Assembly (NCBI GenBank): GCA_943704425.1
Contig: CALSCP010002083.1
Span: 1-40,560 of the forward strand
DNA: 40,560 nt
Direction of reading: 5' to 3'
Source: Ministeria vibrans ATCC 50519
Taxonomy: Eukaryota > Protista > Filasterea
The translations under genes and the position numbers were made by a program. Positions 7,958 through 40,560 of this stretch are shown here, piece by piece. Each line of letters begins with the position of its first letter. The first letter of the stretch is position 1. A model generated the notes under the pieces. It was given only the letters and a program-made list of their open reading frames with translations. It was not told where the DNA came from and did no database searches.

Positions 7958-7998
7958 AACATCTGCTCCAAAACAAAGCAAACTATTTATTATTACAT

Positions 7999-19247: not shown

Positions 19248-19253
19248 ATTTTC

Positions 19254-19589: not shown

Positions 19590-19594
19590 TATAT

Positions 19595-19642
19595 TATTAA
19601 GCTATTAAATAAGCATGTCTTTAAGCCCTTTTTTATTCGTTT
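19595..19642 (-). promoter_or_regulatory. 48-bp promoter block (contains GGCTTAAAGAC), identical inverted copy at 39510-39557
   Basis: Exact reverse-complement match; immediately 5' of an ATG in both places. Confidence 0.8.
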
Positions 19643-19658
19643 ATTTCTTAATAAACAC

Positions 19659-20396: not shown

Positions 20397-20427
20397 ATTA
20401 CTTTTATATTAATGGAACAGAATTTAT

Positions 20428-20934: not shown

Positions 20935-20989
20935 TGTATAACTATACTTAAGATATTTCTTAATACCTTAACTACTGCTTAATACGCAC

Positions 20990-21232
20990 TCATTCCTTCA
21001 CCTCTAGGTAGTCAAAATAAGGACTTTTTAAGTCAAAATTCTTTCTATACCGTTTTTCACATACTTTTTTTGTATAGGCAACTTGTGAGATGCTATCATT
21101 TATTTCTTCGATAAGAACTTTACTATGACGAGTATCTACGACAAGATTATGAATTTCTTGAAGGGTGATACACATTTCACTTAATTTGTTAGCAATTGCT
21201 TTATGTTCTGCCTGTGTAAGCTCTTGTTTCAT
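20990..21232 (-). CDS. Hypothetical protein (80 aa)
   Basis: ATG preceded by GTATA, like most viral ORFs here. Confidence 0.65.
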   Translation of the reverse strand: MKQELTQAEHKAIANKLSEMCITLQEIHNLVVDTRHSKVLIEEINDSISQVAYTKKVCEKRYRKNFDLKSPYFDYLEVKE

Positions 21233-21259
21233 TATACTCTTAAAGAATATTTTATTTAT

Positions 21260-21583
21260 TTACTTTCTACCCTTCCTCTTGCCACCACCGCGTTTTCTTC
21301 CAGCACCAGATGATCCGAGCTTTCCTTTTACTTTAGTAATGCCTTTGTTAAGACCCTTATTAAGCGTATCATGTGAGGCTGTTAAGATCTGTTTTCTATT
21401 ATCTGCGACCTGTTTACGAAGAAATGATTTGAATTTGCTGTCTCCTACCCTTCCTGTTGTGACGTTAGCAATAGCGTGATTAAGACCACTGTTAAGCTGT
21501 TTATTTGCGAAAGATATCAATTTTCCTTGGTGTTGTTGTAACTGTTTGCTAGCGAATGATTTGACTGAATCAAAGAAACCCAT
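21260..21583 (-). CDS. Small basic protein with N-terminal amphipathic helix (putative internal virion or membrane-active protein)
   Basis: MGFFDSVKSFASKQL...GSSGAGRKRGGGKRKGRK; directly downstream of the MCP block. Confidence 0.7.
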   Translation of the reverse strand: MGFFDSVKSFASKQLQQHQGKLISFANKQLNSGLNHAIANVTTGRVGDSKFKSFLRKQVADNRKQILTASHDTLNKGLNKGITKVKGKLGSSGAGRKRGGGKRKGRK

Positions 21584-21607
21584 TATACTACCTATTTAGA
21601 TAATAAA

Positions 21608-22924: not shown

Positions 22925-22985
22925 TTGTTATATACTTAACCAATGAAAAAAATCATCGGTTAAATCAAACCTATTAAGGAACTGT

Positions 22986-24209: not shown

Positions 24210-24293
24210 TCTTATATTAGAAGGATAGATTTTAAATATTGCCCTTAGGCAACATTTAAAACGTCATTTATAACAACTGTATTAGCCGATTGT

Positions 24294-25457
24294 TTAATCC
24301 ATTACCTCGACGCTACCAGGACGTAACATAATTGTTCTTACGAAGTAAGTCCATGTGTAGTATGTCTTTGTCACAGCTGGTGAAGATAAGTTCAGAAGCA
24401 AGGTAAATTCTTTGTTTAACAGATCAAGAGCTCTATTAGCTCCGGCGAACGAACGAGCATAAATTATGGTGTCACTGTTATCAAGAGATTCCCAGTTAGT
24501 GACTGGAACACCAATTGAAGCATAAGCATTAGCAAGTTCGTTGTTAGCAATCTGGTTATACGCTTTTGATGTTGATACTTTACTATTAGGGGTGTTAACA
24601 CCTCCGATTCTGAACTGATAAGAAGAGTTTCCACCTGGAGAATCCTTGATAGGTAAGAACTTTGTTCTGTCATCTATGTCATTAAACTTACTTGTGTCAA
24701 AGGCCATAGTGAATGATGCGACGCAATCGTGGTGATTAGATGAGGGACTGAGCTGGAACACAGGGTTAACAAGAGCACTAGTAGCATTGTTAATAGTCTG
24801 TGAACAGGTGATAAAGTTCAACATAACACCATCCTTATTGTATCTATCCATGATATATGCACTGTATTCTTCTCTCGTAGCGTCAGGTATGTTCTTTTCA
24901 CTAACAGTAAGGAACACATTGGACACAGTGAATGCTCCATCAGTGATAGGAGTAGGATCAGTTGAAGCCTGTGAAATAGCGAGCGTGTTAGATGCTAATT
25001 TAATACGTATGGTTAATCCTTGTTTCATGATCTTTAATGGCCAGCATGTGGCTTTGGCGAACACTCCTGAGAAAGCACTTAGAGGAAGAACCCATGTTTG
25101 CGTTACATTTCCTTCATCATCAACACCTTGAGATATCATCCTGTACCCATTGATACCATTATGTGATGCACTAACACGTTGCTTATTAGCCACTTCAAGA
25201 CCAATGTTGTTAAGATTCTCGATGTCGGTGTTATCGGCCCTTGTCACCATCTCATCTAACACTCCAAATGCTCCAGCATCTTCATCAAACGCTGGTGTTC
25301 CTGCTGTGCTAGTTAAAGCTATATCAAGAGTAAAATACGACTCAGTTAGGCAGACAAAATCACGCGGTGGAATAGCGAGATCAATAAGCTGATTTTCAGT
25401 AAATGATGCACCATTAGATGGGCCATAGCGTGTCACGATTTCACTTTGTTTACTCAT
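24294..25457 (-). CDS. Major capsid protein-like (double jelly-roll), copy C
   Basis: 387 aa; PSNGASFTENQLIDLAIP...SYFTLDI...GAFGVL...IENLNN...GLTIRIKLA...YQFRIGG pattern. Confidence 0.8.
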   Translation of the reverse strand: MSKQSEIVTRYGPSNGASFTENQLIDLAIPPRDFVCLTESYFTLDIALTSTAGTPAFDEDAGAFGVLDEMVTRADNTDIENLNNIGLEVANKQRVSASHNGINGYRMISQGVDDEGNVTQTWVLPLSAFSGVFAKATCWPLKIMKQGLTIRIKLASNTLAISQASTDPTPITDGAFTVSNVFLTVSEKNIPDATREEYSAYIMDRYNKDGVMLNFITCSQTINNATSALVNPVFQLSPSSNHHDCVASFTMAFDTSKFNDIDDRTKFLPIKDSPGGNSSYQFRIGGVNTPNSKVSTSKAYNQIANNELANAYASIGVPVTNWESLDNSDTIIYARSFAGANRALDLLNKEFTLLLNLSSPAVTKTYYTWTYFVRTIMLRPGSVEVMD

Positions 25458-25484
25458 AGTTTATATACCTTAGCGAGAATTTAA

Positions 25485-26222
25485 TTACAGTTTGTCATCT
25501 TCATCTATTAACCGGTAATTATACCGCTTATACATTTTGTTCTTCTCCTTGTTAAAGTGTAGAAATGGCCTTCCTTCTTCTTCTTCATCATCATCCTTCC
25601 ATGCTTCATTCAGGATTTGCTTGCCATTTTTAGTGTTCAGAAACTCCTCTAATAGGACATCTACTTCCTTCTTGTTAGACATCTTAAAGGCTATTAAACT
25701 GGTTAGGTTAGTACGGATAGTACTAGGAATCATTCTAATACGCTGACATGTGATAATGACGGAAACACCAAAATGTCTTGCCATAATGATCATACGACTC
25801 ATAATACCCCTATTCCCACTAGCTTGAAGCTCACCAGCGCAATCATCCAAGATAAGTAATGTACGATCCTTTCTACCTGTAACTGAAGCCTTTTGAAAGA
25901 TCTCATAAATTGTGCCCTCATTGTACTCTTCAAACACCTTATCATCGTCTAGATTCATCAGATCAAATGGGTTAGCCTGGGCTGTGTTTTTTGCATTGAC
26001 AGATATTAAGTAGACGTTATCAAAGTAGTTCTTGTACCAATTTAACAAAGTGCTTACTAAGAGGAAACTTTTACCACTTCCTGAAGGGCCACACACCAAT
26101 AATCTACACGGATGTTGAATAGGCAGGTTATCAGGGTGATCCGGGAGTCTAGCAGGTAAGTCAAGATGCTTAACTCTAAAGTCTTTATCAAGATCATTAA
26201 TAGGTTTCTTATTTCGAGTCAT
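25485..26222 (-). CDS. A32-like (FtsK/HerA superfamily) genome-packaging ATPase
   Basis: Walker A GPSGSGKS, Walker B LLILDD, and ARHFGVSVIITCQ...IPSTIRTN. Confidence 0.95.
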   Translation of the reverse strand: MTRNKKPINDLDKDFRVKHLDLPARLPDHPDNLPIQHPCRLLVCGPSGSGKSFLLVSTLLNWYKNYFDNVYLISVNAKNTAQANPFDLMNLDDDKVFEEYNEGTIYEIFQKASVTGRKDRTLLILDDCAGELQASGNRGIMSRMIIMARHFGVSVIITCQRIRMIPSTIRTNLTSLIAFKMSNKKEVDVLLEEFLNTKNGKQILNEAWKDDDEEEEGRPFLHFNKEKNKMYKRYNYRLIDEDDKL

Positions 26223-26256
26223 AACAGATATATAATTATATCACATAATAATATAA

Positions 26257-26727
26257 ATGCCAATCACTAAGCACCTCGTATCGTACGCAAATGACGTCGA
26301 AACTGAACAAACCCAATCACCGCCTGCAAAGAAAGTGAAAAAACCTAGATCAGCTAAACAATTGGCGAATGACCAGCGATTGAGAGACAAACATGCATCT
26401 CTAAAAGCGAGTAAACAGACTGCGAAACAAGATGCCAAACCAGTCGTATCACAAGTGAAAGAGAAAGTTGTAGAGAAGACTGTTATGCCATCTGAGTCAG
26501 ACCTTGATAGGATATTTAACAGTTACCTTGAGAAGAACAAACACCGTTTCACACCTCAGCAAGCAAAGCAAAAAGTTGCAGAACCAGTTATTAGGAAAGA
26601 GGAAGTGATAATAACTGATGAACCGAAGGAGAAAACACCAGTCAACGTGATCAAGAAGGATAAGAAAGCATTTGAGAAGCCAGAACACATGGGCCCGATT
26701 GATCATAAGTGGCTCAATTGGATGTAA
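26257..26727 (+). CDS. Lys-rich hypothetical protein
   Basis: 156-aa ORF divergent from the ATPase; ATATAA directly before the ATG. Confidence 0.75.
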   Translation: MPITKHLVSYANDVETEQTQSPPAKKVKKPRSAKQLANDQRLRDKHASLKASKQTAKQDAKPVVSQVKEKVVEKTVMPSESDLDRIFNSYLEKNKHRFTPQQAKQKVAEPVIRKEEVIITDEPKEKTPVNVIKKDKKAFEKPEHMGPIDHKWLNWM

Positions 26728-26784
26728 TTAGGTCATCTAGTAAGTAACGTATTAGTAGTACAATTATTCTATTGCTAATATATA

Positions 26785-28464
26785 ATGTCCATAGCTAACT
26801 ACAGAAGCAGAATATCGGATTACAATGCCTTATTGGCGCAGATGAAAGGCAACTTAGACACTGAAGTAGGGACTGATTCTAACCAAGAAACAGGCTTAGG
26901 AGTTGCAACTGGTATCGGTTCTATTCCATTGTTAATGAGTGGCAAAAGAAGTATTAAAGAACTGTACGGAATAATGAAAAAGAGCAAGGAAGCACGCAAC
27001 TTTGTAGAGACTGAAGGAATGCAAGCAGGTGAATCATCTAAGGGTCTAATGGACAGATTTAAGAAGTACTTATCAAGAGACAGAACAGCGGATCGTAACA
27101 CGCTTGCTGATGCGTCTGAGGGCCGAATACCTGATGCTCAAATGGACCCAATGGACTTTGGTGAACCAGCTGACTCAATACCACTTAACAGGTTCGGTAG
27201 TAGGAGCAAAAAAGGATACAGATCACTGGATGACGAAGATGATGAGGGGACAATTAACCCAGCATTTGATCGTTCTTACGCTGAACCAGCAGGTGAAAAC
27301 ACACCGCTATTAGGCAATGAAGTAGGTGATGATGAAGATCCATTATCAGGCTTAGGAGACACATACGAGGCTATTAGTGACATATCTCCGCCACCAGGAT
27401 TCAATTATGCTGACGACCTATTAAAGCCTATTGGTAAGGGATCAGAAGGTGCAGATTTCGGCACTGAAACAGAAGCTGTGACACAAGATTTAACACCGCT
27501 TAAAGTACGGTTCAAGAAAAGTCCATTAGAGCACATGCCCGGTGACGATGAATTGGCTAGTATGTCACATGCAGACTTGAGAACATTGGCAAAGAATAAT
27601 GGTATTCGATCGACTGGTAAGGGAGCTTCAAGTGACGAATTAAGAGGCAAATTAGGGAAGTTTAGAGATGGTGCAGAAATGGACGATAACGACTTTAGTT
27701 CAACAAATATGGCATCATACCTTAAGTCCAGATATGGAAGAAGTCCGTATCTGAAGGATAAGTATCCTGATAAGAACCTAATAGATACTAAAGCTGTGTC
27801 TAAAAGAGATCTTATTAGAGACGTTAAGAAGGCACAAAAGGAAGAGTCAGTTGGAAAGGCTGAAAGGAGACCAATAGCTGATGACCCACCTAAGAAAGAA
27901 ATGGGTACAATGGATGACATATTAGGTGACGAAGCTGGTCCTTCTGATGCTGGTAATTTGCTAACTGGAGGAGGTCAATCACAGACTGAAACTATTGAAC
28001 AAGAACAACAGCTTGATAACGCGTCTAATACGGCGGATGCACAGGCTTCACAAGAAACAGCAGAACAGGCTAATACAGCGGAAGATAACATCTTAGAACA
28101 CAACATAGACGCAACAGAGAATGTGGCAGAACATGGAGGTAAAATTGACTCGATAGACGGTGAGGACACAGCTGATGCCACTGCTGATGCAGGCGCTGAT
28201 GCAGGTGCTGAAGCTGGTGCTGTAGGAGCTGACGCTCTTGCGGATGCTGGTGCCTCAGCGTTAACATTAGGAGGTGCATTATCCGGTGTCGGATTAGTTG
28301 CTGGAGTGGGAATGGGAATCTTTTCGTTGGTCGAGCTTATTAAGAGCAAAACAGATGAACACAAACAGGAACAACAGGCGCAAGAGAAACTTCCATACAT
28401 TGCGAAGGCTACTTTTAATGCCACATCTCCTGCTGATAGGAATGTATCAACATCTAACGTGTAA
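26785..28464 (+). CDS. Acidic D/E/G/A-rich protein with HeH/SAP-like motif and C-terminal hydrophobic segment
   Basis: MSHADLRTLAKNNGIRSTGKGASSDELRGKL; ALTLGGALSGVGLVAGVGMGIFSLVELI. Confidence 0.8.
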   Translation: MSIANYRSRISDYNALLAQMKGNLDTEVGTDSNQETGLGVATGIGSIPLLMSGKRSIKELYGIMKKSKEARNFVETEGMQAGESSKGLMDRFKKYLSRDRTADRNTLADASEGRIPDAQMDPMDFGEPADSIPLNRFGSRSKKGYRSLDDEDDEGTINPAFDRSYAEPAGENTPLLGNEVGDDEDPLSGLGDTYEAISDISPPPGFNYADDLLKPIGKGSEGADFGTETEAVTQDLTPLKVRFKKSPLEHMPGDDELASMSHADLRTLAKNNGIRSTGKGASSDELRGKLGKFRDGAEMDDNDFSSTNMASYLKSRYGRSPYLKDKYPDKNLIDTKAVSKRDLIRDVKKAQKEESVGKAERRPIADDPPKKEMGTMDDILGDEAGPSDAGNLLTGGGQSQTETIEQEQQLDNASNTADAQASQETAEQANTAEDNILEHNIDATENVAEHGGKIDSIDGEDTADATADAGADAGAEAGAVGADALADAGASALTLGGALSGVGLVAGVGMGIFSLVELIKSKTDEHKQEQQAQEKLPYIAKATFNATSPADRNVSTSNV

Positions 28465-28505
28465 GCCTATTAAGAGAATTATTATCCTTCATAACAATAT
28501 AATCA

Positions 28506-29693
28506 ATGAGTGGTAACAGAATTATTCAATGTAAACAAGAAGCACTTGGATCTGTAGATCTGGACCCTATTAATCACCATGCATGGATGAACACGTTTGA
28601 TGAGGGCCTGGAGGTACATAAGGGTGATATGTTAAGGATCAATCAAGCCTTTATCAACTCACAAACAGGGGGTACTTTGATGGAGATCAATTCGACTAAT
28701 AACACCTTTAATATGACTGTTAGCTTCTATGTAATGCGTAACGGATCTGGCAACGTTGATTACCCTATTTATGATGTTTATTTCCCGGATGGTTACACGC
28801 TTTACACAGAAAACGTATCAGCAACGATACCAGATGGCTTCTATGACATGAATCAGATCGGATTAATCATTCAAAAATCGCTGACTGATAGTACACAGGC
28901 TGAGATAGCAAATGTAGGTACAACAGGTTGGTGGTTAGCACGTAGTAACACATTTAGAACATTTACAGCAACTGATTCAAGACTCATTAATAGAAATGGT
29001 GATGAAGACTATCCATGGCCTAATACAGGTGGAGAGAATTACGTTATTGCAGGGGCTAATATGCCAGTATTTGAGTGGAATAGAAGTGGTAACAGTCGCT
29101 TCACATGGTCGTTCTTACATCAGCCGTTTTATGGAGCTGATGGACAGCCTGCTTGCCAAATTAATAGATACGGTGATTATGGCTTATATGATCGCTTATC
29201 AGGGGTGGAATTAACGCTTGATTACGCTGTTGCTGGTAGTGGTTGGGCCACATTAGGATTCGATGAAGCAACTCAATCAGGGATAGGAAGCACCCAAGGA
29301 CAGGTCGTATCAAGTGGTTACACAAGCATATTAGCACCCCCTGAAACATTAACTATCCAGTGTGATAGCACAACTATCGAAGCCTTAACACTGCCACTAT
29401 TAACTACTTCCCCATACTGGATTTTGCAATGTGATTTATCTGATGATAGTAACCTTCTTATGCCTGATACAAGGGGTTTCGTAGGGTGCTCAGGTATATT
29501 AAATCAATCAGAGTATGCTCAAGACTACTCATTATCTTACCAGAACTCATTTAACCTTGTAATACAGGAAAATAAGACTGTTAAAACGATTCGTACAAGG
29601 ATACTGACTAGTTCGGGTAATGTGCCTACATCATTGCTTTCTAGGTCTAGTATCATATATGAACTAATACCGGCTCCACCAACCAAAATTTAA
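28506..29693 (+). CDS. Minor capsid (penton)-like protein 1
   Basis: Beta-rich; IPDGFYD and C-terminal PYWILQCD...VKTIRTRILTSSG...SSIIYEL resemble single jelly-roll pentons with an insertion. Confidence 0.6.
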   Translation: MSGNRIIQCKQEALGSVDLDPINHHAWMNTFDEGLEVHKGDMLRINQAFINSQTGGTLMEINSTNNTFNMTVSFYVMRNGSGNVDYPIYDVYFPDGYTLYTENVSATIPDGFYDMNQIGLIIQKSLTDSTQAEIANVGTTGWWLARSNTFRTFTATDSRLINRNGDEDYPWPNTGGENYVIAGANMPVFEWNRSGNSRFTWSFLHQPFYGADGQPACQINRYGDYGLYDRLSGVELTLDYAVAGSGWATLGFDEATQSGIGSTQGQVVSSGYTSILAPPETLTIQCDSTTIEALTLPLLTTSPYWILQCDLSDDSNLLMPDTRGFVGCSGILNQSEYAQDYSLSYQNSFNLVIQENKTVKTIRTRILTSSGNVPTSLLSRSSIIYELIPAPPTKI

Positions 29694-29713
29694 ATGTGTT
29701 GTTGTAATATAAC

Positions 29714-30454
29714 ATGATTGTCACCGTATCGTCAAATAATGAACAAAATCCAGCGCTCTTTAACGCTATCGTAAAGCAGGGATTAACCGTCCCTAAGCGT
29801 GCTAAAATTGGTCTTGTTAATGCCTTATTAAATGTCAAGCGGGAGATTAACATCCCCGCTAGTACGTTCTTTTATGACATTGATAATGGCGCATTTTCTG
29901 GTTCCATACCTGTTGTACAAGCTGATTACACAGATGCTACTGAATTTACTGACTGGCTTACTAATCAATTGAATCAAAACTTGGGCGGAGTGACATTCAC
30001 AGTAGCGTATAACTACACACATTCAGGTTTCCAGATAAGTTGGGTAGCAGGAAGTACACAATTGATTTATGTTTACATGGAGGACGATCTTAACTATGCC
30101 ATGGGATTCGCTAATGCACAGCTGTCGAAATATGCACAATCAGCCAGTTTCTTCAGTCCTCTAACAATTGGCTCAAGTACAAATAAGAATGCACTTATGA
30201 TAGACATTGATAACCTGACTATTACAAGCTACAATACAGTGAGAAATGGTTATGTTAATACACTCGCTACTATTCCACTTAGTAATGAGAACACAAGTGC
30301 CTTAAATTACGATCCTAACACAATACTTTATGTGGAACTTGACAATGATGAACCGTTTCAATTGAAGAACATTAAGGTATCTGTTAGGTACACAGACGGA
30401 TCTATTTGCCCAGATTTAAGTAGCCACACAACACTGGTATTAAATATTATCTAA
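29714..30454 (+). CDS. Minor capsid (penton)-like protein 2
   Basis: LMIDIDNL...LATIP...YDPNTILYVELDN...LKNIKVSVRYTDG...TTLVLNI, a typical PLV penton C-terminal pattern. Confidence 0.75.
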   Translation: MIVTVSSNNEQNPALFNAIVKQGLTVPKRAKIGLVNALLNVKREINIPASTFFYDIDNGAFSGSIPVVQADYTDATEFTDWLTNQLNQNLGGVTFTVAYNYTHSGFQISWVAGSTQLIYVYMEDDLNYAMGFANAQLSKYAQSASFFSPLTIGSSTNKNALMIDIDNLTITSYNTVRNGYVNTLATIPLSNENTSALNYDPNTILYVELDNDEPFQLKNIKVSVRYTDGSICPDLSSHTTLVLNII

Positions 30455-30466
30455 CGCATTAATATA

Positions 30467-31192
30467 ATGACAAAATTCAGAAGCGGTGATGCACTATTCG
30501 ATATTTCAAGAGACTTTGGACCGGGTAGAATTCTTCAATTGTGCCCTTATGAAGACGCTGTTGGAACAACACAGAAGGTATTTTGGAGCAATCCAGCAGA
30601 TCCTAGTTGGAATACAAGTGCTGTGCAGATAGAGATATGGTCAACTAGCGCGTCAGACACTGGAGCAGGAGTTGGAGCAAGAACCGTATTAGTTAACTTC
30701 ATAGACGATAACATGGAGGAACGATTCGAAACTATTGAGCTCAATGGTACTACTATTGTGACCCTTGCATCTTACGGCTACAGAGTCAATAGTCTAGAAG
30801 TCATAACAGCGGGATCTAGTGCAAAAAACGTCGGTGGTATATACGCATCTCACAGCGCTAAGGCACAGACTATGTGTTTGATCAATGTTAATGAGAATAC
30901 TTCAAAGGTTGGAATGTACAGCTGTGCCAATAACCAGACACTGTATTTGAAGAATATGGTCATATCTAATGGAGGCTCTGCAGGATGCTTCTTAGAGGTT
31001 TTAGTAAAAGGCATAGAGGATACGATAGTAAGGCGTTTCGGACGGTTTCATGTAACTGCCGCCCAAACTCAATCAATAGACCTTAATTGGATGGCTATTG
31101 GACCTGGCGAAGACTTTTATTGTGTGATCAACACTGGTGGTAGTGTAACAAATATGAACGGAGTTATAAACTGTGTAATAGAAGAGAATTAA
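30467..31192 (+). CDS. Putative virion protein, paralog of 19659-20396
   Basis: STSASDTGAGVGARTVLVNFID...ETIELNGTT...RVNS...AGSSAKNVG. Confidence 0.78.
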   Translation: MTKFRSGDALFDISRDFGPGRILQLCPYEDAVGTTQKVFWSNPADPSWNTSAVQIEIWSTSASDTGAGVGARTVLVNFIDDNMEERFETIELNGTTIVTLASYGYRVNSLEVITAGSSAKNVGGIYASHSAKAQTMCLINVNENTSKVGMYSCANNQTLYLKNMVISNGGSAGCFLEVLVKGIEDTIVRRFGRFHVTAAQTQSIDLNWMAIGPGEDFYCVINTGGSVTNMNGVINCVIEEN

Positions 31193-31211
31193 TATCTGTT
31201 ACGAGTGTATA

Positions 31212-31415
31212 ATGACGTCGTCAATGCAAGCAATGAGAAAAGCTATTAGCGCTCACAACACCAAGAATCACTATAAAATGTCAAGAGCTCAATTAGAAGA
31301 TGTTGTTCTTCGTAAGATGATTGAGGCTCCTAAGATGAAGAAATCACCACCTAAGAAGAAGGCTAAGAAGCCAGTTGCGCCGAAGCCAAGGAGAAGTAAA
31401 AGAACAAAACGGTAA
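31212..31415 (+). CDS. Small very basic protein (candidate DNA-condensing core protein)
   Basis: 67 aa ending KKSPPKKKAKKPVAPKPRRSKRTKR. Confidence 0.7.
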   Translation: MTSSMQAMRKAISAHNTKNHYKMSRAQLEDVVLRKMIEAPKMKKSPPKKKAKKPVAPKPRRSKRTKR

Positions 31416-31558
31416 TCACGTTCATTTGTAAAATACCTTAACAAACGCATAAAACACAAGAGCGTGGTGAACCAGTTTACCACGATCGTTAATAAGATGC
31501 TCAGCGAAGGAAAATATTGATTTGGCAAGAAAAATCGAACTTGGCAGGAAAAAAGCCC

Positions 31559-31600
31559 TGGCTAGAAAAAAATCTCTCGCGAGACATTTTTCTCTTGCCA
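31559..31600. repeat. 42-bp imperfect palindrome flanked by TGGCA-R-AAAA repeats
   Basis: TGGCTAGAAAAAAATCTCTCG|CGAGACATTTTTCTCTTGCCA; 18 of 21 positions are complementary. Confidence 0.85.
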
Positions 31601-31654
31601 TGACGTGGCACAAAAAAAAACACAAAAAAATAATCATCCTTTTTAGTATACAAT

Positions 31655-31888
31655 ATGGGTCGTTGGGAAATCATTCAAGGTGGCTTTGATAACAATCAGA
31701 TAGAAGGCTTATTTGACCACTTAAATATCGAGTATAAGCCGTACAATTCATTCCGTACTAAGGGTGTAAAAGAACCAGAGGATAGGAAAGAGAGTATTGT
31801 TAAGCTCGATGATTGTTTCTTCACAGGGTATAAACAGGTTGCTGAATACATTCTGTTTGCCACGTTTCAGTTCAACAAAGTAGAGTAA
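31655..31888 (+). CDS. Hypothetical protein (77 aa)
   Basis: ATG preceded by GTATA. Confidence 0.6.
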   Translation: MGRWEIIQGGFDNNQIEGLFDHLNIEYKPYNSFRTKGVKEPEDRKESIVKLDDCFFTGYKQVAEYILFATFQFNKVE

Positions 31889-31908
31889 ATATCTTGACCT
31901 CTATTATA

Positions 31909-32271
31909 ATGTATCCTTATTGCGATTTTTGCAGAAATAACTTCAGCGACACTTGTGAATTAAGTAACTTTCAGCCATATGTTGTGTCAGTTGAAAGATA
32001 CATAGATTTGAGACAGAAACTACTTAAAAACGACGTTAACCAGATCCTTGGGATAGTAAAGAAAACCAAACATCTCAAACTGTTTCCAGTTAAGTATCAG
32101 CTCTGTCTACAGTGCCTTAAACAGTATCTTAAATACCGTGTGAAACATATATATTTAGTCCCAGATACATTCACAATAAAGACATATATTGTCAATACTG
32201 ATACAAATGATTATGAGTACTTTACCGGACCAGAAGACTCTGATAGCGGTTTATGTAATTGTTGTGAGTAG
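31909..32271 (+). CDS. Cys-containing hypothetical protein
   Basis: ATG 31909 after TATA; CDFC and CLQC pairs. Confidence 0.6.
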   Translation: MYPYCDFCRNNFSDTCELSNFQPYVVSVERYIDLRQKLLKNDVNQILGIVKKTKHLKLFPVKYQLCLQCLKQYLKYRVKHIYLVPDTFTIKTYIVNTDTNDYEYFTGPEDSDSGLCNCCE

Positions 32272-32541
32272 CTTCTTAAGTTGCTTAGCAAAGCATTCAT
32301 TCTGTGTTAATAGGTCAACTAACATGCCATTTGTTAACTCATCAGTTGGTTGAGTTGTTCTCGAAAGAAACTCTTTTCTTTCGATATTCTTTTTATGCAA
32401 ATTAGTCTTCAGGTGAGTGTAGTAACGTGATTGAGTCACAATCTTACCACAGTAGCATTCACGCTTTTTCTTGCCATAGGCTCTATGATATGCTCTATGA
32501 GCTTCAATTTTCTCAAGGTTATTAACTGCACTGTTTTCCAT
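32251..32541 (-). CDS. Zn-finger (CxCG...H...H) protein
   Basis: CYCGKIVTQSRYYTHLKTNLH; GGCTTAAAGA motif upstream (32566-32575, minus strand). Confidence 0.75.
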   Translation of the reverse strand: MENSAVNNLEKIEAHRAYHRAYGKKKRECYCGKIVTQSRYYTHLKTNLHKKNIERKEFLSRTTQPTDELTNGMLVDLLTQNECFAKQLKKLLTTIT

Positions 32542-32670
32542 CGTATAATGGTATAACATAATATCTCTTTAAGCCTTTTATTCAGCCCTTATTTATGCGT
32601 TATTAAAAAACGTTTGAAGAATGTGCAAAATGACTTAAAGAAATGACGATTTACATATTTTATATAAATC

Positions 32671-35600
32671 ATGACGGACAAAAAATCCAAGTCTAAATCA
32701 GCTACAAAGCCCTCCCAAACTAAGAAGCAGACGAACAAGGTGCTATCAGATGAACAGCTTTTACGGCTTATTAAATCTGATTCACACCTTTACAAACGTG
32801 CCATATCTTTAAGTGGTATTGAGGCAAGTAAGAAAACTAAACAGTTGAAAAAGGATCACGATGCCATACTCAAAGCAGGTGCAGTTAAACGCAAAGCAAA
32901 GAAGACTGTTGAAGGACAGCAATTGCAGAAGAAACTAAAGAAGTTTGCAAAGCATGAAGACAGCGTTATTAATCCTGTAACTAATAGACCTATTAAGTTA
33001 GCTGGAAAGTCATTTGTCACACACGGAAAGAAGGGGAATGTTAAATTCACTGAGTACAAATCACCAGCAGGGGGATTCAATCTCGTTAAAGAACACCGTG
33101 ATCTCCTGAAATGGTTCAAAACTAGTAAACATGCATTACCTAAAAATAAAGATATTTTGTCATTATTAGACAGAAAAATCCAAATTGAAGACAAGGATAA
33201 TGGCACGAATAAGTTCACAGTCGTTGGTACAATTTCATTCCTTAACAAGCATGGGGTGTTAGATCATACACCGATTAGAGTAGATGACGATAAAATGAAA
33301 CGCAACATAATCACACTGCCAAAGGGAATAGATAGAGACACTGCAACCTTATATATTGCATCCAAGGTAGATAAGTACACTAAATTGTACGGTAATGTGC
33401 AGAAATTAGACGCTCTAGTTTTGGATCCTGTTAACACTAAATTAGCTCAACAAAAGATGAAGGGAGTACGCTTTCAATCTAAACTTCTAACTGATGTAAG
33501 TGCAGGAGTCTCACAGCGAGATGGTTTCTGTACCGTAGACTATCTTTGGCATGAAATGGAGGGTAAACCCAGATTTGCTAAAAGTATGACTTTCAAGAAA
33601 CTTGTTAGTGAGCTATCAGAGTTCTGTGATGTAAACGATGGCGTTAGTACAACAGACATAATCAACTGGAAGTTAAAGTATCATAGAAACATAAGTGTGT
33701 ATGCACTGAACGCAATGAAAGAAGTGTTTATTAGTAGTCCAGCAGGCTTACATGAGAAGCACACTTTAATCTTAACTTTTATGGTCTCCAATGAGCATTT
33801 GTATCCTATAACTAAAGAGAGTTGCAAGCAGTTCATAGCTAAAGGTAAACGCCTACAAGAGTTTGATGTTAAGATGGAGGAATTCAGGTTTGATATTAAG
33901 TTCTCAGGTGAACAGTTTAACATTCTAAATGACGATAATATGGACGAGTTTATTAGAGGAGAAACAGACGGTAAAATATGGATATTAGACGATGAAAATA
34001 AATCAAAATTGAACCCTAAGGATGACAAAAAGAGCATGGTATCGTTGGCAAACGACTGCATGGTACATACTGATTTCCTTATTGAACATTTTGATATGTG
34101 TAGTGCCAGTAAAATTAATGCTTTTGTGCATCCTACGAGTGGTCAAGTTGTCGTATTAGGCACAGAGTTTGAACGCAGAAGAGAGTTGTGTAAAACATTA
34201 TTTGACATTTATCAAGTCGACTGTTTCAGGTTTATTAACCAGAGCATGTGTCAAATTTCAAGAGATCTTTTCAAGATTGTTACAGGGCATACTCGAACCA
34301 GTACTTACACTGAATTGGTTGGCAAAATATTAGATGATTTCAAGCCTAACGCATTGATTCAAACAATCGAAGAAGGTGACATATCAGAAATGAAAATAGA
34401 AGGCTTGGACACAAAGAAAGCGTACAGTTGGGCTCTGCTTTCAAACACGTTTGATATTCCTATCTTTTCAATCAATAGCACGATTGAGGACTACACTGGG
34501 GATAAGATTGTATGTGGACTGTATTACATTGAAGGTACACAGTTGATTAGGTACTCTAATGGCTCTCATGCCTTGGCCCTAAAACCTGCATTTTACTCTT
34601 GGAATTTAGTCCAGTATTTATTGGATAATGGACATATTCAAAAGAGTGCTATTAAGTATTGTATCAAGGCTTCATTTTCATTGAAGGCAGACATGTTCAA
34701 ATCATTTGTAGAATTTTGTTACAAACACCTCAAAATACAAGATGGTAAGGATATCGTTAATCTCCTAGTAGGCTGGTACGGTAAATCTGTTAATAAGACA
34801 TATCACGGATGTGTTACAGATAGCGCAGAGACATTATGTTGTCTAATGAGTGATATTTTAGATGCTGGTGATCAGCCTATTATCAACATGTTTGAGCATC
34901 TATTTGTTGTTAGAAAAGAAATAAGAACCAAGCTTGGAAAGGACAATGTGTCAATATGGAATCATGTAATTAGCGCCGGTATTGCGAACCTATTAGGGCT
35001 TTGTGAACGGGTTAAAACAAACAACGGTACAATCATCGGTGTCAACACAGACTGTGTATTTTACACCGGTTGTGAACAGATTTCTGATGTACTAAAGATG
35101 AAGGAAAAGATGAAGGATGAAGATGAAGAGGAAGAGGATCATGTGAAGAATATTGGAAAAGCTTCGCCTGAAATATCTCCGCAACCAAAATTGTTCCACG
35201 AGTACGAGGCTTGTGACGAACTTGATATCACTAAATACACAGTAAGCCAAGGTAACGGAGTGATATACACAGGTCTTGCTGGAAGTGGTAAAACACAGAA
35301 ATTACTGGACATAATTGCAACGCTAAATGATGGAGAATACATGGTATTATCACCAACTAATAAGGCTTGTGTGAACATTAATATTAGAAATGGTAAAGCA
35401 ATTTGCTCGACACCTAACAGTTTACTGTTCTTGGCGAAGAGTGACTCAGAGAAAATTAGGATGCTCAATAAGACTGTATTAATAGATGAATTTGCCATGG
35501 TGAATGACTACTGGATGAGTCTATTTTACAGAGCATGGTTAGTGAATAAAAATAAGTTCATTATGTTCGGTGATCCTAACCAGTTACAGGCCGTGGAAGA

Positions 35601-36801
35601 GGAAATTGAACCTATAAATCATTTGAATTCGGTAGGCGTAAAACAGATGTGTCCGACTGTCATAGAATTACAGTACTTAGAAGTATCTGGACGTTATGAT
35701 ATTGCTCTTAAAATGGCACTAGATACGTTCCTCGACACCGGGTCTACTTGTGACTTCGTGTTCAAGAAAATAGATATCTCATTGAAAGTCAATATTGTGA
35801 GCACTAATGAGAAAAGAAGAGAGATTACGAAACGGTTATGCAAGACCGGTGACAAGGTGAAATTCTATTATCAAAAAAATTATGAAACTTACAAGGTGGA
35901 TGAGACGACTCCAATCCTATGTACAGTAAATAATAAGAAGCTTAATTTGATCTCTAATATGGTGTATAAGATCAATCACATTGATAACCATTTTGTATGT
36001 ATTAGTGGTAAAATGGTTAAGGAGTTTAAGATGAGGCGTGATATGTTCGCTAAATCATTCATTCCCAGTTATGCATTTACAGTTCATAAGTCTCAAGGTG
36101 ATACAATACGAGAACCCTACAATATTTGGGAAGCTAAGACTATGTCTAAGAGTCAATTTTATACTGCAGTCAGCCGATCATCTCACTCTAATTTGATCCA
36201 CTGTAGTGCCTATAATGATATTTATAAAGTTGAAAAGAGCGGTCTAATGACCTGCAAAAAACTGGATGCATTTAGTAATGAATACAAGAACGGTAAGATC
36301 TACAGAATAGATTTCAGTAATGGTAGTCTGTACATAGGAGAGACAATACTGACAGTAGAAGAACGCCTAAAACAGCACCTTAATGATGTTCATGGTACAG
36401 TGTACAAGTACATTGAAGCTAACCCAGGAATTACATGTACTATTACACAGATAGCTACGACACCTTGTGATGATCATGGAGAGCTCATGAGATATGAAAC
36501 ATATTACATTCAATTACACCAAAAAGAGCATGGCATTAGGCTTATTAATAAGAAACAATTACACAGAGTTGAAAAGATCAAAGAAGATGAAGTGGATATA
36601 TCTATTAAGACATCTATTAGTGACTCACGATTCAACATAAAACATAACGAAGACAAACGTGAATTGGCGATACAGTACAGAGACGAGAATGGTAGTAAGA
36701 AATGTATTAAGAAGCGGTACAAAGTAGGCGGTTTCGAGGATGCTATGACATATATGAAAAACAAAAGAGAAGGCATTTTGATTGATCTGGCAAGTCTCTA
36801 A
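32671..36801 (+). CDS. Fusion of family B (protein-primed-type) DNA polymerase, SF1B (Pif1/RecD-like) helicase, GIY-YIG nuclease and AP2-like domain
   Basis: PolB motifs LDTKKAY, KDIVNLLVGWYGK and GVNTDCV. Helicase motifs GLAGSGKT, SPTNKA, IDEFAM, GDPNQL, TVHKSQGDT and YTAVSR. GIY-YIG pattern GKIYRI...LYIGET...ERLKQH...E. Confidence 0.88.
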   Translation: MTDKKSKSKSATKPSQTKKQTNKVLSDEQLLRLIKSDSHLYKRAISLSGIEASKKTKQLKKDHDAILKAGAVKRKAKKTVEGQQLQKKLKKFAKHEDSVINPVTNRPIKLAGKSFVTHGKKGNVKFTEYKSPAGGFNLVKEHRDLLKWFKTSKHALPKNKDILSLLDRKIQIEDKDNGTNKFTVVGTISFLNKHGVLDHTPIRVDDDKMKRNIITLPKGIDRDTATLYIASKVDKYTKLYGNVQKLDALVLDPVNTKLAQQKMKGVRFQSKLLTDVSAGVSQRDGFCTVDYLWHEMEGKPRFAKSMTFKKLVSELSEFCDVNDGVSTTDIINWKLKYHRNISVYALNAMKEVFISSPAGLHEKHTLILTFMVSNEHLYPITKESCKQFIAKGKRLQEFDVKMEEFRFDIKFSGEQFNILNDDNMDEFIRGETDGKIWILDDENKSKLNPKDDKKSMVSLANDCMVHTDFLIEHFDMCSASKINAFVHPTSGQVVVLGTEFERRRELCKTLFDIYQVDCFRFINQSMCQISRDLFKIVTGHTRTSTYTELVGKILDDFKPNALIQTIEEGDISEMKIEGLDTKKAYSWALLSNTFDIPIFSINSTIEDYTGDKIVCGLYYIEGTQLIRYSNGSHALALKPAFYSWNLVQYLLDNGHIQKSAIKYCIKASFSLKADMFKSFVEFCYKHLKIQDGKDIVNLLVGWYGKSVNKTYHGCVTDSAETLCCLMSDILDAGDQPIINMFEHLFVVRKEIRTKLGKDNVSIWNHVISAGIANLLGLCERVKTNNGTIIGVNTDCVFYTGCEQISDVLKMKEKMKDEDEEEEDHVKNIGKASPEISPQPKLFHEYEACDELDITKYTVSQGNGVIYTGLAGSGKTQKLLDIIATLNDGEYMVLSPTNKACVNINIRNGKAICSTPNSLLFLAKSDSEKIRMLNKTVLIDEFAMVNDYWMSLFYRAWLVNKNKFIMFGDPNQLQAVEEEIEPINHLNSVGVKQMCPTVIELQYLEVSGRYDIALKMALDTFLDTGSTCDFVFKKIDISLKVNIVSTNEKRREITKRLCKTGDKVKFYYQKNYETYKVDETTPILCTVNNKKLNLISNMVYKINHIDNHFVCISGKMVKEFKMRRDMFAKSFIPSYAFTVHKSQGDTIREPYNIWEAKTMSKSQFYTAVSRSSHSNLIHCSAYNDIYKVEKSGLMTCKKLDAFSNEYKNGKIYRIDFSNGSLYIGETILTVEERLKQHLNDVHGTVYKYIEANPGITCTITQIATTPCDDHGELMRYETYYIQLHQKEHGIRLINKKQLHRVEKIKEDEVDISIKTSISDSRFNIKHNEDKRELAIQYRDENGSKKCIKKRYKVGGFEDAMTYMKNKREGILIDLASL

Positions 36802-36832
36802 AGAGACTTAAGGACGTGTGACGTTACTCAAC

Positions 36833-36913
36833 TGTCGGGTGGTGTAAATAACATAATCAGTGGAGATCGCGAGCGAAGCTGGTAGATAGTTGGCGAAATT
36901 CCAACAACCGATT
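36833..36913 (+). ncRNA. tRNA-like ncRNA candidate between polymerase and integrase
   Basis: Cloverleaf geometry: GTCGG/CCGAT partial acceptor, TG, GTGT AAATA ACAT, A, ATCAG [18-nt loop with internal hairpin] CTGGT, AGATA, GTTGG CGAAATT CCAAC. Its upstream promoter closely resembles that of the tRNA array. Confidence 0.55.
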
Positions 36914-36931
36914 CATTAATTAGAGAACAAA

Positions 36932-38038
36932 ATGTTGTCCAATTATATAATGAGTAACGAGCCTAAACTTCGGCAAATTTGGAGAGTCAGTAACTTTCCT
37001 AATAAGCTCAATCTTTACAAACTTCAGAAGGAGGCTAATTTGGGATTCACACAGAAGCAGGTAGGAGCGTGGTTAGAGAAGCAAGAAAGTCATCAAACAA
37101 CTACTGCACCTAAGAAACAGAAGGTTTTTTCATCTGTAATAGCACCAAAAGTAGGGAGTAACCTTATGCTTGATTTGATCGTGTACGATAGGTACAAGAG
37201 CAACGGGTTTCAGTACATATTGAATGGAATCGATATTAAAAGTCGCAAGGCTTTTGGTATTGCCCTAAAAGACAGAAAAGAAGAGACGTTAATAGAGGCT
37301 ATGAAGAAGATGTTCAAGCATTACAAACATGTATTTCCTGAGCTACAGATGGATAATGAAGGGGCGTTTACAGGAGATGAATTCGGCAAGGAAATGGAGA
37401 AATTAGGTGTTAAAACGTTATGGTTCTCAGAGGCCGGAGATATACGCAAACAGTCAGTAGTTGAACGCAATAATAGGACAGTAGCAGAAATGTTACAAAG
37501 ATGGAGACAAGGGTCTGGTAGGACTGATTGGGAGAATGAATTAGATCATGTATACGAGGTCTACAACAGCACACCACATTCAACTATTAAGGCCAAACCA
37601 GATGATGTTTGGAATGGAGATGACGTTAATAAGCAGACTATTACTGTTGTTGAACATGACTTCAAAGATGGTGACAAAGTCAGGCTAAAACAACACAAAC
37701 AGGTGTTTACTAAGGGTGATGCGTTGAAGTTTAGTAAGGAGCTTTACACAATCAAGAAAAAGGTCGGACAAAAATATGTTTTGCATGATGAAGATGACGA
37801 TGAGCTCGCACGCCGATATTCCGGTGATGAAATGCGCAAAGCGAACGAAATTGATGCCAACGAGATAGTAAAGACTAGGTTCAAGGAAAATCAGCAGAAG
37901 GAACACGTGAAGACACAAGATGAAAGAAAGACTAAAAGAGAGACTAATAAGCTTCAAACAAATGGTCACAGTAAATTCTTAGAAGAGGTTAACAAGGGTC
38001 TTGGTAAGAGAGTTCGTAAGCCCAAAAAGAAAGAATGA
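36932..38038 (+). CDS. Retroviral-like (rve, DDE) integrase, Polinton type (alternative start 36950)
   Basis: LMLDLIVY (D), LQMDNEGAF (D), VVERNNRT (E), YNSTPHSTIKAKP, FKDGDKVR. Confidence 0.95.
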   Translation: MLSNYIMSNEPKLRQIWRVSNFPNKLNLYKLQKEANLGFTQKQVGAWLEKQESHQTTTAPKKQKVFSSVIAPKVGSNLMLDLIVYDRYKSNGFQYILNGIDIKSRKAFGIALKDRKEETLIEAMKKMFKHYKHVFPELQMDNEGAFTGDEFGKEMEKLGVKTLWFSEAGDIRKQSVVERNNRTVAEMLQRWRQGSGRTDWENELDHVYEVYNSTPHSTIKAKPDDVWNGDDVNKQTITVVEHDFKDGDKVRLKQHKQVFTKGDALKFSKELYTIKKKVGQKYVLHDEDDDELARRYSGDEMRKANEIDANEIVKTRFKENQQKEHVKTQDERKTKRETNKLQTNGHSKFLEEVNKGLGKRVRKPKKKE

Positions 38039-38047
38039 ATTAACAAT

Positions 38048-38076
38048 GGCTTAAAGACATGACACGTTATATAATT
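38048..38076 (+). promoter_or_regulatory. Promoter of the tRNA array (GGCTTAAAGAC-N5-ACGTTA)
   Basis: Closely similar motif with the same spacing at 36805; the CTTAAAGA core also precedes several viral CDSs. Confidence 0.65.
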
Positions 38077-38149
38077 GGTTTAGTGGTGTAATTGTTATCA
38101 TATTCGAGCCTTCGCTCGTGAGTTCCAGGTTAGATCCCTGGCTAGGCCA
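38077..38149 (+). ncRNA. tRNA-like RNA without a canonical anticodon loop (first unit of the array)
   Basis: GGTTTAG/CTAGGCC-A acceptor; anticodon arm TTCGAGC CTTC GCTCGTG (18 nt); T-arm CCAGG TTAGATC CCTGG; D-loop lacks GG. Confidence 0.65.
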
Positions 38150-38150
38150 A

Positions 38151-38222
38151 ACGCTTGTGGTGCAATGGTTAGCATTCTTGTCTTTCACACATGAGATCGG
38201 GGTTCAATTCCTCGCAAGCGTA
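38151..38222 (+). tRNA. trnE: tRNA-Glu(TTC)
   Basis: ACGCTTG-TG-GTGC AATGGTTA GCAT-T-CTTGT CTTTCAC ACATG-AGAT-CGGGG TTCAATT CCTCG-CAAGCGT-A. Confidence 0.88.
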
Positions 38223-38224
38223 TT

Positions 38225-38295
38225 GATTCGGTAGTGTAATGGTATCATATCTGTTTGCCAAGCAGATGACCCGGGTTCGATTCCCGGTCGGATCA
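38225..38295 (+). tRNA. trnG: tRNA-Gly(GCC)
   Basis: GATTCGG/TCGGATC-A; TCTGT TTGCCAA GCAGA; CCGGG TTCGATT CCCGG. Confidence 0.88.
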
Positions 38296-38296
38296 C

Positions 38297-38368
38297 ACGT
38301 TAATAGTGTAATGGTTAGCATACTTGTTTCTCAAACAAGAGATCAAGGTTCGATTCCTTGTTAGCGTA
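38297..38368 (+). tRNA. trnE: tRNA-Glu(CTC)
   Basis: ACGTTAA/TTAGCGT-A; CTTGT TTCTCAA ACAAG; CAAGG TTCGATT CCTTG. Confidence 0.88.
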
Positions 38369-38394
38369 TTATCATGTGACTTAATAAGTCGTAT

Positions 38395-38466
38395 GATTCG
38401 GTGGTGTAATGGTTAGCATCCTTGTCTGTCTCACAGGGGATCGGGGTTCAATTCCTCGTCGAATCG
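38395..38466 (+). tRNA. trnD: tRNA-Asp(GTC) with U37
   Basis: GATTCGG/TCGAATC-G73; CTTGT CTGTCTC ACAGG; CGGGG TTCAATT CCTCG. Confidence 0.88.
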
Positions 38467-38467
38467 C

Positions 38468-38538
38468 GCGTCAGTGGTGTACTGGTAACATCTCGGATTT
38501 CCAATCAGAGGCACTGGGTTCGATTCCCAGTTGACGTA
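38468..38538 (+). tRNA. trnG: tRNA-Gly(TCC)
   Basis: GCGTCAG/TTGACGT-A; TCGGA TTTCCAA TCAGA; CTGGG TTCGATT CCCAG. Confidence 0.88.
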
Positions 38539-38596
38539 TTAACAAATGCATTAATAAGCGCATGTTAAGGAATTATTATATTGCTTAATAGTATAG

Positions 38597-39052
38597 ATGA
38601 ACAATTATATTGAGATGACAAAAGTATCTCCAGGTATTGACGCCTTAATATTCATAGACTACCCAGACCAGGCATTAACAATAGATGACAACTTTGATAA
38701 AGAGTGTCTTAATGGCATTGTAATAGTTGCTGATGATAGTCGACTTACACAAGACGAAAAAAGTGCATTGGAAGGATGTTTAACCTTAGATAATAGTGTA
38801 GTAGCTGAAAAAGACTCATGTTACATATTTATGGTTCCAATACCAGATGAGACAATGAAAAAATTAAACAAATTATTTGAAGTCAGAGTCAAAAAATCCC
38901 CTGAAATAAAGGAAAAATGGTACAACAGATCACTATCCAACGTTGTAAGTTCGTACATAATACACCACGTAACAAAGGGTATATACATGGATATTTTTTA
39001 TACAGTTTATCCTGATCCTTTTCTACATAATGTATTAATAAGAAGACTGTAA
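38597..39052 (+). CDS. Hypothetical protein (151 aa)
   Basis: ORF behind a promoter duplicated at 39064-39108. Confidence 0.75.
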   Translation: MNNYIEMTKVSPGIDALIFIDYPDQALTIDDNFDKECLNGIVIVADDSRLTQDEKSALEGCLTLDNSVVAEKDSCYIFMVPIPDETMKKLNKLFEVRVKKSPEIKEKWYNRSLSNVVSSYIIHHVTKGIYMDIFYTVYPDPFLHNVLIRRL

Positions 39053-39108
39053 AAGTCTAAAAGAATAAGCGCATTGTTAAGCAATTATTTTGTTGCTTAA
39101 TAGTATAG

Positions 39109-39510
39109 ATGATAACATTTATTTCGGGCCCAATAGACATATCACAAAATATGTTCATTGACATGTACAAAGACCGTATTGACCGAGCTGTAGAACGTGG
39201 TGATAGTTTCATTGTTTGTGATTCAAATGGTGTTGATAATCTAGCTCAAATCTACTTACATAGTGTAGGTCAAGGACATAAAACAACAATCTATCACATA
39301 GGCAAAAAGCCCCGTAATAAGCAAGCAGGAATGAAACTAATAGGAGGATTCAAGGACCATGAATCAAAAGACTCAGCATGTACACTTGCATCTGATTGTG
39401 ACATCCTATGGTACAGATCTGTTAAACAGCAAAAGGAACTATTTGGCAATAAGTATATTGATCGTATTAGCGGAACACAAAAGAATGAATTACGGAGGTT
39501 AAGTATTTAA
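39109..39510 (+). CDS. SLOG-superfamily (YspA/DprA-like Rossmannoid) protein
   Basis: FISG...YKDRIDRAV..GDSFIVCDSNGVDNLAQIYL...KDSACTLASDCDILW...SGTQKNELRR pattern. Confidence 0.6.
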   Translation: MITFISGPIDISQNMFIDMYKDRIDRAVERGDSFIVCDSNGVDNLAQIYLHSVGQGHKTTIYHIGKKPRNKQAGMKLIGGFKDHESKDSACTLASDCDILWYRSVKQQKELFGNKYIDRISGTQKNELRRLSI

Positions 39511-39565
39511 AACGAATAAAAAAGGGCTTAAAGACATGCTTATTTAATAGCTTAATATTATAATA

Positions 39566-39943
39566 ATGAGTGACACAACATTTCACAGCAAGATTTTGAA
39601 CGTAACCGAAAATAACATGAAATACAACAACTGTACAGGAACGGTAACGGTAGTTGGCAACTGTATCGGGATCAATTTAACACGAAATCTTAGCATAGCC
39701 GAGCAACATAAAAGAGACAAAAACGGATGTAAACGTAGATTCGCTCCACCAAAAGAATTGTGTGGAATAATAGGTATGCAGTTGATACTGAAAAAGTCAT
39801 TAACTTTTGATAACTGGATAACCCTTGAATGGGAAGGTTCAGATGACAAACTAAATACAATATCTTTTACATGTGACAGTGTAGAACAAAGTCATAAGTT
39901 GCGTAACCTTTTAGTAGAGATGAAGCCATCTGCGAGTGTGTGA
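39566..39943 (+). CDS. Hypothetical protein, possibly PH-like fold
   Basis: Beta-rich with a terminal helix (ISFTCDSVEQSHKLRNLL); the stop codon lies inside the right TIR. Confidence 0.65.
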   Translation: MSDTTFHSKILNVTENNMKYNNCTGTVTVVGNCIGINLTRNLSIAEQHKRDKNGCKRRFAPPKELCGIIGMQLILKKSLTFDNWITLEWEGSDDKLNTISFTCDSVEQSHKLRNLLVEMKPSASV

Positions 39944-40558
39944 ATAAGTGTGTGTTCGGGCTCTGCTACTCCTCTTCTACTGCTATGAAAACATTTTTTT
40001 GGAAACACACTTAAAGATTTGTATTGTATATGAACTATACAATATGGAACACAAACAATCAAGACGCGAATATGACCAGAAAAGGTATCTTGCTAATAGA
40101 GATGAAATGTTGGCTAAAAGAAAGGAATACTATGAGCTTAATAGTGACCATATTAAGGAGAAAATTACTTGCGAATGTGGTCAGTTAATTGGCCGTCATT
40201 GTATGTTGTCCCATTTACGCGGAGATGGTCACAAACGTTGGGCTAATAGGGGATGCTTCAAGGAGTTTAACATAAGACATAACGAAGATAAATGCGAGTT
40301 GACTCTTCAGTACAGGGATAATGATGGTGTAAAGAAGTGTATTAGGAAGCGATATAGCAAGTGTGGTTATGATGCCGGATACGCCTATATGTGTGCTAAG
40401 CAGGCTGATCTTATCAAAGAATATTCTGCATAAATTTTTGTTTTTCCAGCCCTGCTCACCACATTTTAATAGCCACAAATTATATCAGTTAATTATTCAA
40501 CTAATATAATCAAATAATGGAAAAAGTTATTCCGCAAATTCGGTATGGCACAGTTTTT
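39935..40558 (-). repeat. Right terminal inverted repeat (624 bp)
   Basis: Reverse complement of 18624-19247. Confidence 0.97.
40044..40433 (+). CDS. TIR-encoded Zn-finger + AP2-like DNA-binding protein (right copy)
   Basis: Identical to 18749-19138; CACTTAAAGA motif about 30 nt upstream. Confidence 0.8.
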   Translation: MEHKQSRREYDQKRYLANRDEMLAKRKEYYELNSDHIKEKITCECGQLIGRHCMLSHLRGDGHKRWANRGCFKEFNIRHNEDKCELTLQYRDNDGVKKCIRKRYSKCGYDAGYAYMCAKQADLIKEYSA

Positions 40559-40560
40559 GA

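Follow-up and report, generated by a model that had tools for sequence, protein, structure and literature searches.

Transfer RNA (tRNA) genes are known in Polinton-like viruses (PLVs) as well as in virophages: a survey of 8300 genomes reports 558 Rfam hits (PMC12220804), tRNA has been recorded in 30 virophage sequences (PMC6905037), and single Met tRNAs have been described in PLV and virophage genomes (PMC10741620). In the accessible parts of these papers, both tRNA depletion and codon compensation have already been suggested as explanations. Tight clusters have been described in giant viruses, where the chlorovirus tRNA genes stand head to tail with spacers of 1 to ~30 nucleotides (nt) and without encoded CCA, comprise mixed isotypes (17 tRNAs, 14 amino acids, 41 viruses), and in one cluster are reported to give a single co-transcribed and processed transcript (PMC7589089, text available in part). 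Here we describe an array of the same build in a 40,560-nt stretch of DNA from the filasterean Ministeria vibrans ATCC 50519 (assembly GCA_943704425.1, contig CALSCP010002083.1; hereafter the window), lying in an element whose gene content supports its assignment to the PLVs. In contrast to the chlorovirus clusters, it sits in an integrated element of 22 kb and serves three amino acids only, Asp, Glu and Gly. The tRNA-bearing PLV and virophage genomes are ~20 kb like this element but mostly carry one tRNA each; among all 401 rows of Table S12 of PMC12220804 no element has Asp, Glu and Gly together and two have one Glu and one Gly, while in four of the six elements with at least four tRNAs (two in part) the listed genes are more than 130 nt apart. 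No report of a tight PLV or virophage array restricted to three amino acids was found in the literature searched; bioRxiv supplements, lying outside the search, may hold one.

Rfam gives six tRNA matches at 38077-38538, with scores of 34.2-67.8 bits (gathering score 29), and ARAGORN with default settings calls five of the six units, as Glu-TTC, Gly-GCC, Glu-CTC, Asp-GTC and Gly-TCC. The units follow each other head to tail with gaps of 1, 2, 1, 26 and 1 nt, and the array is letter-identical in contigs of three runs (X1, from which the window may derive; X2 and X3, which share one sample). A first-pass annotation, made by a model from the letters alone, had described six cloverleafs; the six matches and the gaps agree with it, but the first unit, t1 (38077..38149, + strand), is not intact. 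Its anticodon loop counts 6 nt, G18 is replaced by T and C56 by A, its Rfam score is the weakest (34.2 bits), and its closest comparator is a viral Gln-TTG at 66%. Because t1 is degenerate in its loop and in the replacement of G18 and C56, the array is considered to hold five intact genes, not six.

These five, all on the + strand, are t2, tRNA-Glu(TTC) (38151..38222), with the loop CTTTCAC; t3, tRNA-Gly(GCC) (38225..38295), with G1-C72 and A73; t4, tRNA-Glu(CTC) (38297..38368), with A38; t5, tRNA-Asp(GTC) (38395..38466); and t6, tRNA-Gly(TCC) (38468..38538), whose anticodon stem contains a single G.A mismatch. Between t4 and t5 lies the 26-nt spacer (38369..38394, +), a predicted hairpin that can take in the initial bases of t5 as well (-9.5 kcal/mol) and is weak, with z ~ -1.7 in a 70-nt context. 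The cloverleaf, the 7-nt anticodon loop and the invariant D- and T-loop bases are present together in 5/5 of t2-t6 and not in t1. Their anticodons are non-redundant and cover all eight GAN/GGN codons, GGG being read by wobble, so the claim that the set serves the Asp, Glu and Gly boxes only holds. So does the claim that CCA and oligo-T terminators are lacking: CCA follows none of the six units, and from 38000 onwards no run of four T occurs on the + strand until 38994, 456 nt beyond the array.

The five genes look selected, because 102 of 105 stem pairs hold (85 Watson-Crick and 17 G.U, against three mismatches), compensatory changes separate the related pairs, and G73 is found in the Asp gene alone among the six units. 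Between t2 and t4 there are three double and three single pair-keeping changes and one broken pair; between t3 and t6, five double and two single pair-keeping changes and two broken pairs. According to the determinants listed in the accessible part of PMC9976931, namely G73, G10.U25, GUC and C38, t5 carries the full Asp identity set, and against the Gly table of the same source t6 mostly conforms (C2-G71, G3-C70 and A73, with G1.U72); for Glu, that table gives no eukaryotic set. It is quite probable that t2-t6 are functional tRNAs.

How such a set came together was considered in a tree of 43 tRNAs, comprising the six units and 37 Glu, Asp, Gly, Gln and His genes from viral loci found by pattern search (duplicate loci L005 and L010 left out; 73 columns, with rough support). 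Descent of all six units from one ancestor through anticodon shifts is rejected, as they form a single group in 0/200 bootstrap trees. Both Gly genes, t3 and t6, group with five other viral Gly tRNAs (support 98/88), while the Glu genes t2 and t4 pair weakly (87/85), suggesting that the array arose from at least two captured lineages. Across a 58-nt core t5 is 90% identical to t2, and it has 13 of 14 acceptor-stem bases in common with t3; overall it is 72% identical to each of the two, above the maximum of 90 cross-isotype comparator pairs (68%). This pattern points to a chimera of a Glu core and a Gly-GCC-like acceptor stem, recombined inside the array. If so, t5 would clearly exemplify an isotype newly created by recombination within an array, its anticodon and discriminator both suiting Asp.

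Upstream of the array, 27 nt ahead of t1, stands the motif CTTAAAGA (38050..38057, +). It occurs nine times in the element, where 1.8 occurrences are expected, and is absent from the host-like left half of the window. Seven of the nine copies are in sense, 14-39 nt ahead of an ATG or of the array; as two pairs of copies are duplicates, five of seven independent copies are upstream in sense. They precede non-structural genes rather than capsid or ATPase genes. CTTAAAGA is therefore likely a promoter element, and no paper on this motif was found. Because the element ORFs (open reading frames) scanned give no RNA polymerase match, it would be read by host RNA polymerase II or by a helper virus. 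The bases of the A and B boxes are lost in t1 while CTTAAAGA upstream is intact; t2-t6 retain A/B-box-like D and T loops, so read-through by RNA polymerase III could also occur. Transcription of the array as one upstream-driven precursor seems on balance likely. Contigs of a run taken to be RNA (X11) give no match at 30000-40560, a result without bearing on expression. The first-pass annotation had spoken of one viral-type promoter and a polycistronic unit, of which the element-enriched motif ahead of the array is confirmed, and the promoter function and the joint transcript are what we infer from it. A 55-nt inverted copy bearing CTTAAAGA is also found at 19588-19642 and 39510-39564. A hairpin rule like that of Mimivirus was sought here and rejected as not systematic (z < -2 in 6 of 26 downstream regions and 1 of 40 controls).

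The element extends over 21.9 kb (18624..40558) and is delimited by 624-nt terminal inverted repeats (18624-19247 and 39935-40558) with 100% complementary arms. Contig depth is ~2x across the terminal repeat and ~1x within the element, and a repeat depth about twice that of the interior fits one element type. A loose contig end at the repeat is consistent with a left junction with non-element DNA and a 6-bp target duplication; the first two letters of the terminal hexamer at this junction are the two bases that follow the right repeat. An N gap divides the element side from the host-like left half of the window, which has the look of a compact eukaryotic genome, probably that of a protist.

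The main ORFs of the element are all open. Three tandem paralogous capsid-like genes (21608..25457, - strand; 438, 407 and 387 aa) are followed by an A32-type packaging ATPase (25485..26222, -; Pox_A32, E 3e-15). Their paralogy draws on significant profile pairings for two of the three pairs (E 1.6e-9 and 6.8e-5; the third, E 0.33), and the capsid-like label on weak matches, to Capsid_NCLDV at E 6e-4, below the curated cut-off, and to Capsid_N (E 9e-5) in one aligned relative. Further along come a 1376-aa protein with a superfamily 1 helicase and a GIY-YIG domain (32671..36801, +) and an rve integrase (36932..38038, +; rve, E 3.6e-8), the stop of which lies 38 nt ahead of the array. Candidates for the minor capsid (penton) protein at 28506-30454 have no Pfam match, and the one at 28506 is also present in a related locus, L016. 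No PolB match was found in the 25 element ORFs scanned, and the rve integrase is present, which agrees with the PLV criterion that pPolB and rve integrase do not occur together. With inverted repeats, A32 ATPase, capsid-like genes and rve integrase, the earlier naming of a Polinton-like virus is supported. Three capsid or capsid-like genes, the packaging ATPase and a similar size are common to this element and the TRIMCP group of PLVs (bioRxiv 10.1101/2019.12.13.875310), from which it differs in its rve integrase; the likeness is to the layout described there rather than to reference genomes, and the word "tRNA" has a count of zero in the main text of that paper.

Several further observations concern the element and its surroundings. 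A 129-aa ORF lies in both terminal repeats (18749-19138 and 40044-40433), and its C-terminal 55 aa are 47% alike to the helicase end (36631-36801). A 49-nt direct copy (38563-38611 and 39075-39123) stands ahead of each of two ORFs 3' of the array, which have no curated Pfam or PADLOC match and whose single-sequence predicted folds are unusable (predicted local distance difference test 45 and 35). For one of the two, of 133 aa (39109-39510), homologues over the full length occur in 15 Lak megaphage records (34-37%, E to 2e-15). The Atlas places it in unnamed, largely phage clusters, where DNA_processg_A is a weak lead (19% of members; score, 0.89) that may hint at a SLOG-like fold. A 1608-nt integrase-bearing contig in the same runs is related to 36598-37374, with 41 differences in 239 nt (the integrase piece being ~83% alike); from this second related integrase contig, the organism appears to carry another related element.

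The loci found to be related to the element are distant. The closest protein matches, 71% for one capsid and 24 matches for another, have no DNA context. L016 (14.9 of 20.8 kb) and L017 (a whole 12.2-kb contig) have the capsid/ATPase module in common with it at 27-38% identity, and neither contains a tRNA by ARAGORN or Rfam. Eleven further ATPase-bearing loci (24-30%), two of them from one contig and two from large contigs, have no tRNA by ARAGORN, nor do the nine scanned with Rfam. Conservation of the GAN/GGN set, on which the first-pass annotation would have its idea judged, is thus not shown by these 13 loci, and they are too distant to refute it. Scans of viral contigs with integrase and capsid, and of prokaryote genomes, found no close relative; DNA patterns found either no locus or 15 loci, in which the tRNAs were mixed or few and no protein matched the element; and blastn against phages gave single-tRNA pieces only, with 0/63 records covering 80% of the query.

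The leading candidate reason for the cassette is depletion of host Asp, Glu and Gly tRNAs, which would be the selective force. Most plausibly the array works like a chlorovirus cluster: the five intact genes would be transcribed as one precursor from the CTTAAAGA-type promoter, cut by host RNase P and Z, CCA-tailed by host enzymes and then charged, and the products would make good the loss in three tRNA families that run short or are cut during infection. Taken as a whole, the view that the cassette replaces depleted tRNAs, and does not serve to tune codon or amino-acid usage, is put forward tentatively. In its favour, the five anticodons fall in two codon boxes, an outcome reached in 0.14% of trials in which five different anticodons were drawn from 122 viral ones. 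A number of points weigh against it. The array is known in one element only, the 13 loci with 0 tRNAs being distant (24-41% in the ATPase) and mostly partial. Within the array, t1 has decayed, and t3 is without two Gly determinants, C2-G71 and G3-C70. The figure of 0.14% treats paralogues as independent draws where only two or three origins exist. A38 in Gly and Glu loops is common among the comparator viral tRNAs, so as a loop change only T37 of the Asp gene is striking. In the codon comparison, the host reference is a limited sample (1569 codons from seven unannotated host-side ORFs across the N gap), four of the five tRNAs decode a codon that is 2.5-4x as frequent in the element as there, and the excess of Asp, Glu and Gly ranks 81 among 1140 amino-acid triplets.

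These last figures bear on plain supply, the idea that functional tRNAs merely aid decoding of GAT, GAA, GGT and GGA in an AT-rich element, with no nuclease involved. GC content at third codon positions stands at 0.35 for the element against 0.70 for the host sample; the enrichment is 4.1x for GAT, 3.1x for GGA, 2.9x for GGT and 2.5x for GAA; Asp is third of the 20 amino acids by excess; and PMC12220804 interprets PLV tRNAs as codon compensation. Against this, enrichment of at least 2x is seen in 17 of the 30 codons that end in A or T, so almost any tRNA set would fit. The most skewed codons, TTA (19x) and ATA (11x), have no cognate tRNA in the array, and GTA and the Lys and Asn codons AAA and AAT are likewise unserved, while Glu-CTC reads GAG alone, a depleted codon (22 per 1000 in the element, 34 in the host sample). 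Moreover, Asp, Glu and Gly make up 18.9% of residues in the element and 13.4% in the host sample, but also 18.5% and 18.8% in L016 and L017, which share the composition without any tRNA found (their hosts may differ). As many A/T-ending codons are enriched, TTA and ATA unserved and the shares in L016 and L017 the same, the protein demand of the element does not single out the Asp/Glu/Gly set. Simple codon tuning explains the array poorly, in line with the first-pass annotation, and plain supply is rather doubtful as the explanation.

It is unlikely that the cassette is a relic, acquired in one piece from either a giant virus or a former host, that is now neutral or decaying. The decay of t1, the Gly determinants missing from t3, T37 in t5, the grouping of the Gly bodies with giant-virus-type Gly tRNAs and the related loci without tRNA found would all be expected of one. 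The near-complete stems, the open main ORFs and the identical inverted repeats are not, and recent capture from the host is opposed by the finding of no contig at least 80% identical to the array besides the element's own, some records having been filtered.

The first-pass annotation had also called these tRNAs classic Dnmt2 substrates, and this stands for the isotypes but not for the loops. Dictyostelium DnmA (Dnmt2) binds Asp-GUC, Glu-UUC/CUC and Gly-GCC (PMC3794594, in part), a set that includes four of the five array anticodons; the human DNMT2 loop motif, C32 U33 (G/I)34 N35 (C/U)36 A37 C38 (PMC8682788, in part), fits 0/5 of the t2-t6 loops strictly and 1/5 when position 34 is left free. 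A Dnmt2 decoy is ruled against, as none of the five loops matches the human motif. A non-coding role in place of one in translation, be it as tRNA-shaped punctuation that frees the 26-nt hairpin or sets the ends of adjoining mRNAs, as a supply of tRNA fragments, or as a decoy for a host tRNA-binding protein such as Dnmt2, is quite improbable: the hairpin spacer, the degenerate t1 just past the integrase stop and the DnmA-bound anticodons would suit it, but the loops miss the motif, the 1-2-nt spacers hold no cargo, the hairpin is weak, and non-redundant anticodons with G73 tracking Asp are what translational selection would be expected to give.

Returning to the replacement of depleted tRNAs, the loop mismatch with the DNMT2 motif would be in keeping with evasion of a factor that reads that loop. 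In eukaryotes, anticodon nucleases include zymocin, acting on tRNA-Glu(UUC), and SAMD9, acting on tRNA-Phe (PMC13191261, in part). Phage tRNAs have been proposed to evade host nucleases via loop changes (PMC10264068, in part), and like the present array they have loops off the usual cellular pattern and are proposed replacements; there, however, the nucleases and their targets are known, whereas here a nuclease would be a putative one and the host is a eukaryote. A step of counter-defence against a nuclease would be drawn by analogy with these phages. In its most specific form, a host defence or a giant-virus nuclease would read the C36-A37-C38 loop of Asp, Glu and Gly tRNAs and the PLV would have built a full and resistant set of substitutes, among them an Asp tRNA of its own making with U37; this we regard as improbable. 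T37 of t5 (38431) is unusual, the three comparator Asp tRNAs, duplicate loci dropped, having A37.

The host-like half of the window holds a second cluster of ~10 odd tRNA-like genes at 6864-8070. It comprises Val (a CAC-like unit with an 8-nt loop, GAC, and TAC twice), Arg (TCG and GCG), Ala (a GGC-like unit and TGC twice) and one unit in which an Ala body with G3.U70 bears the anticodon TGG. Eukaryotes do not usually have G34 in four-codon boxes. Together with the PLV set, this cluster would serve each of the four codon boxes that start with G. Gene pieces at 15536-16448 (-), ~2 kb from the insertion, resemble in translation what we take to be a tRNA-binding protein of the Arc1p/AIMP1 type.

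Small eukaryotic DNA viruses ration space, and a selected 460-nt cassette for three amino-acid families would therefore point to a specific pressure. Were this pressure to be cleavage, the cassette would name the targets of a protist anticodon nuclease, and tRNA-based defence in unicellular eukaryotes would become directly testable. Should the set prove resistant as well, it would be a eukaryotic counterpart of phage tRNA counter-defence, carried by a 22-kb virus.
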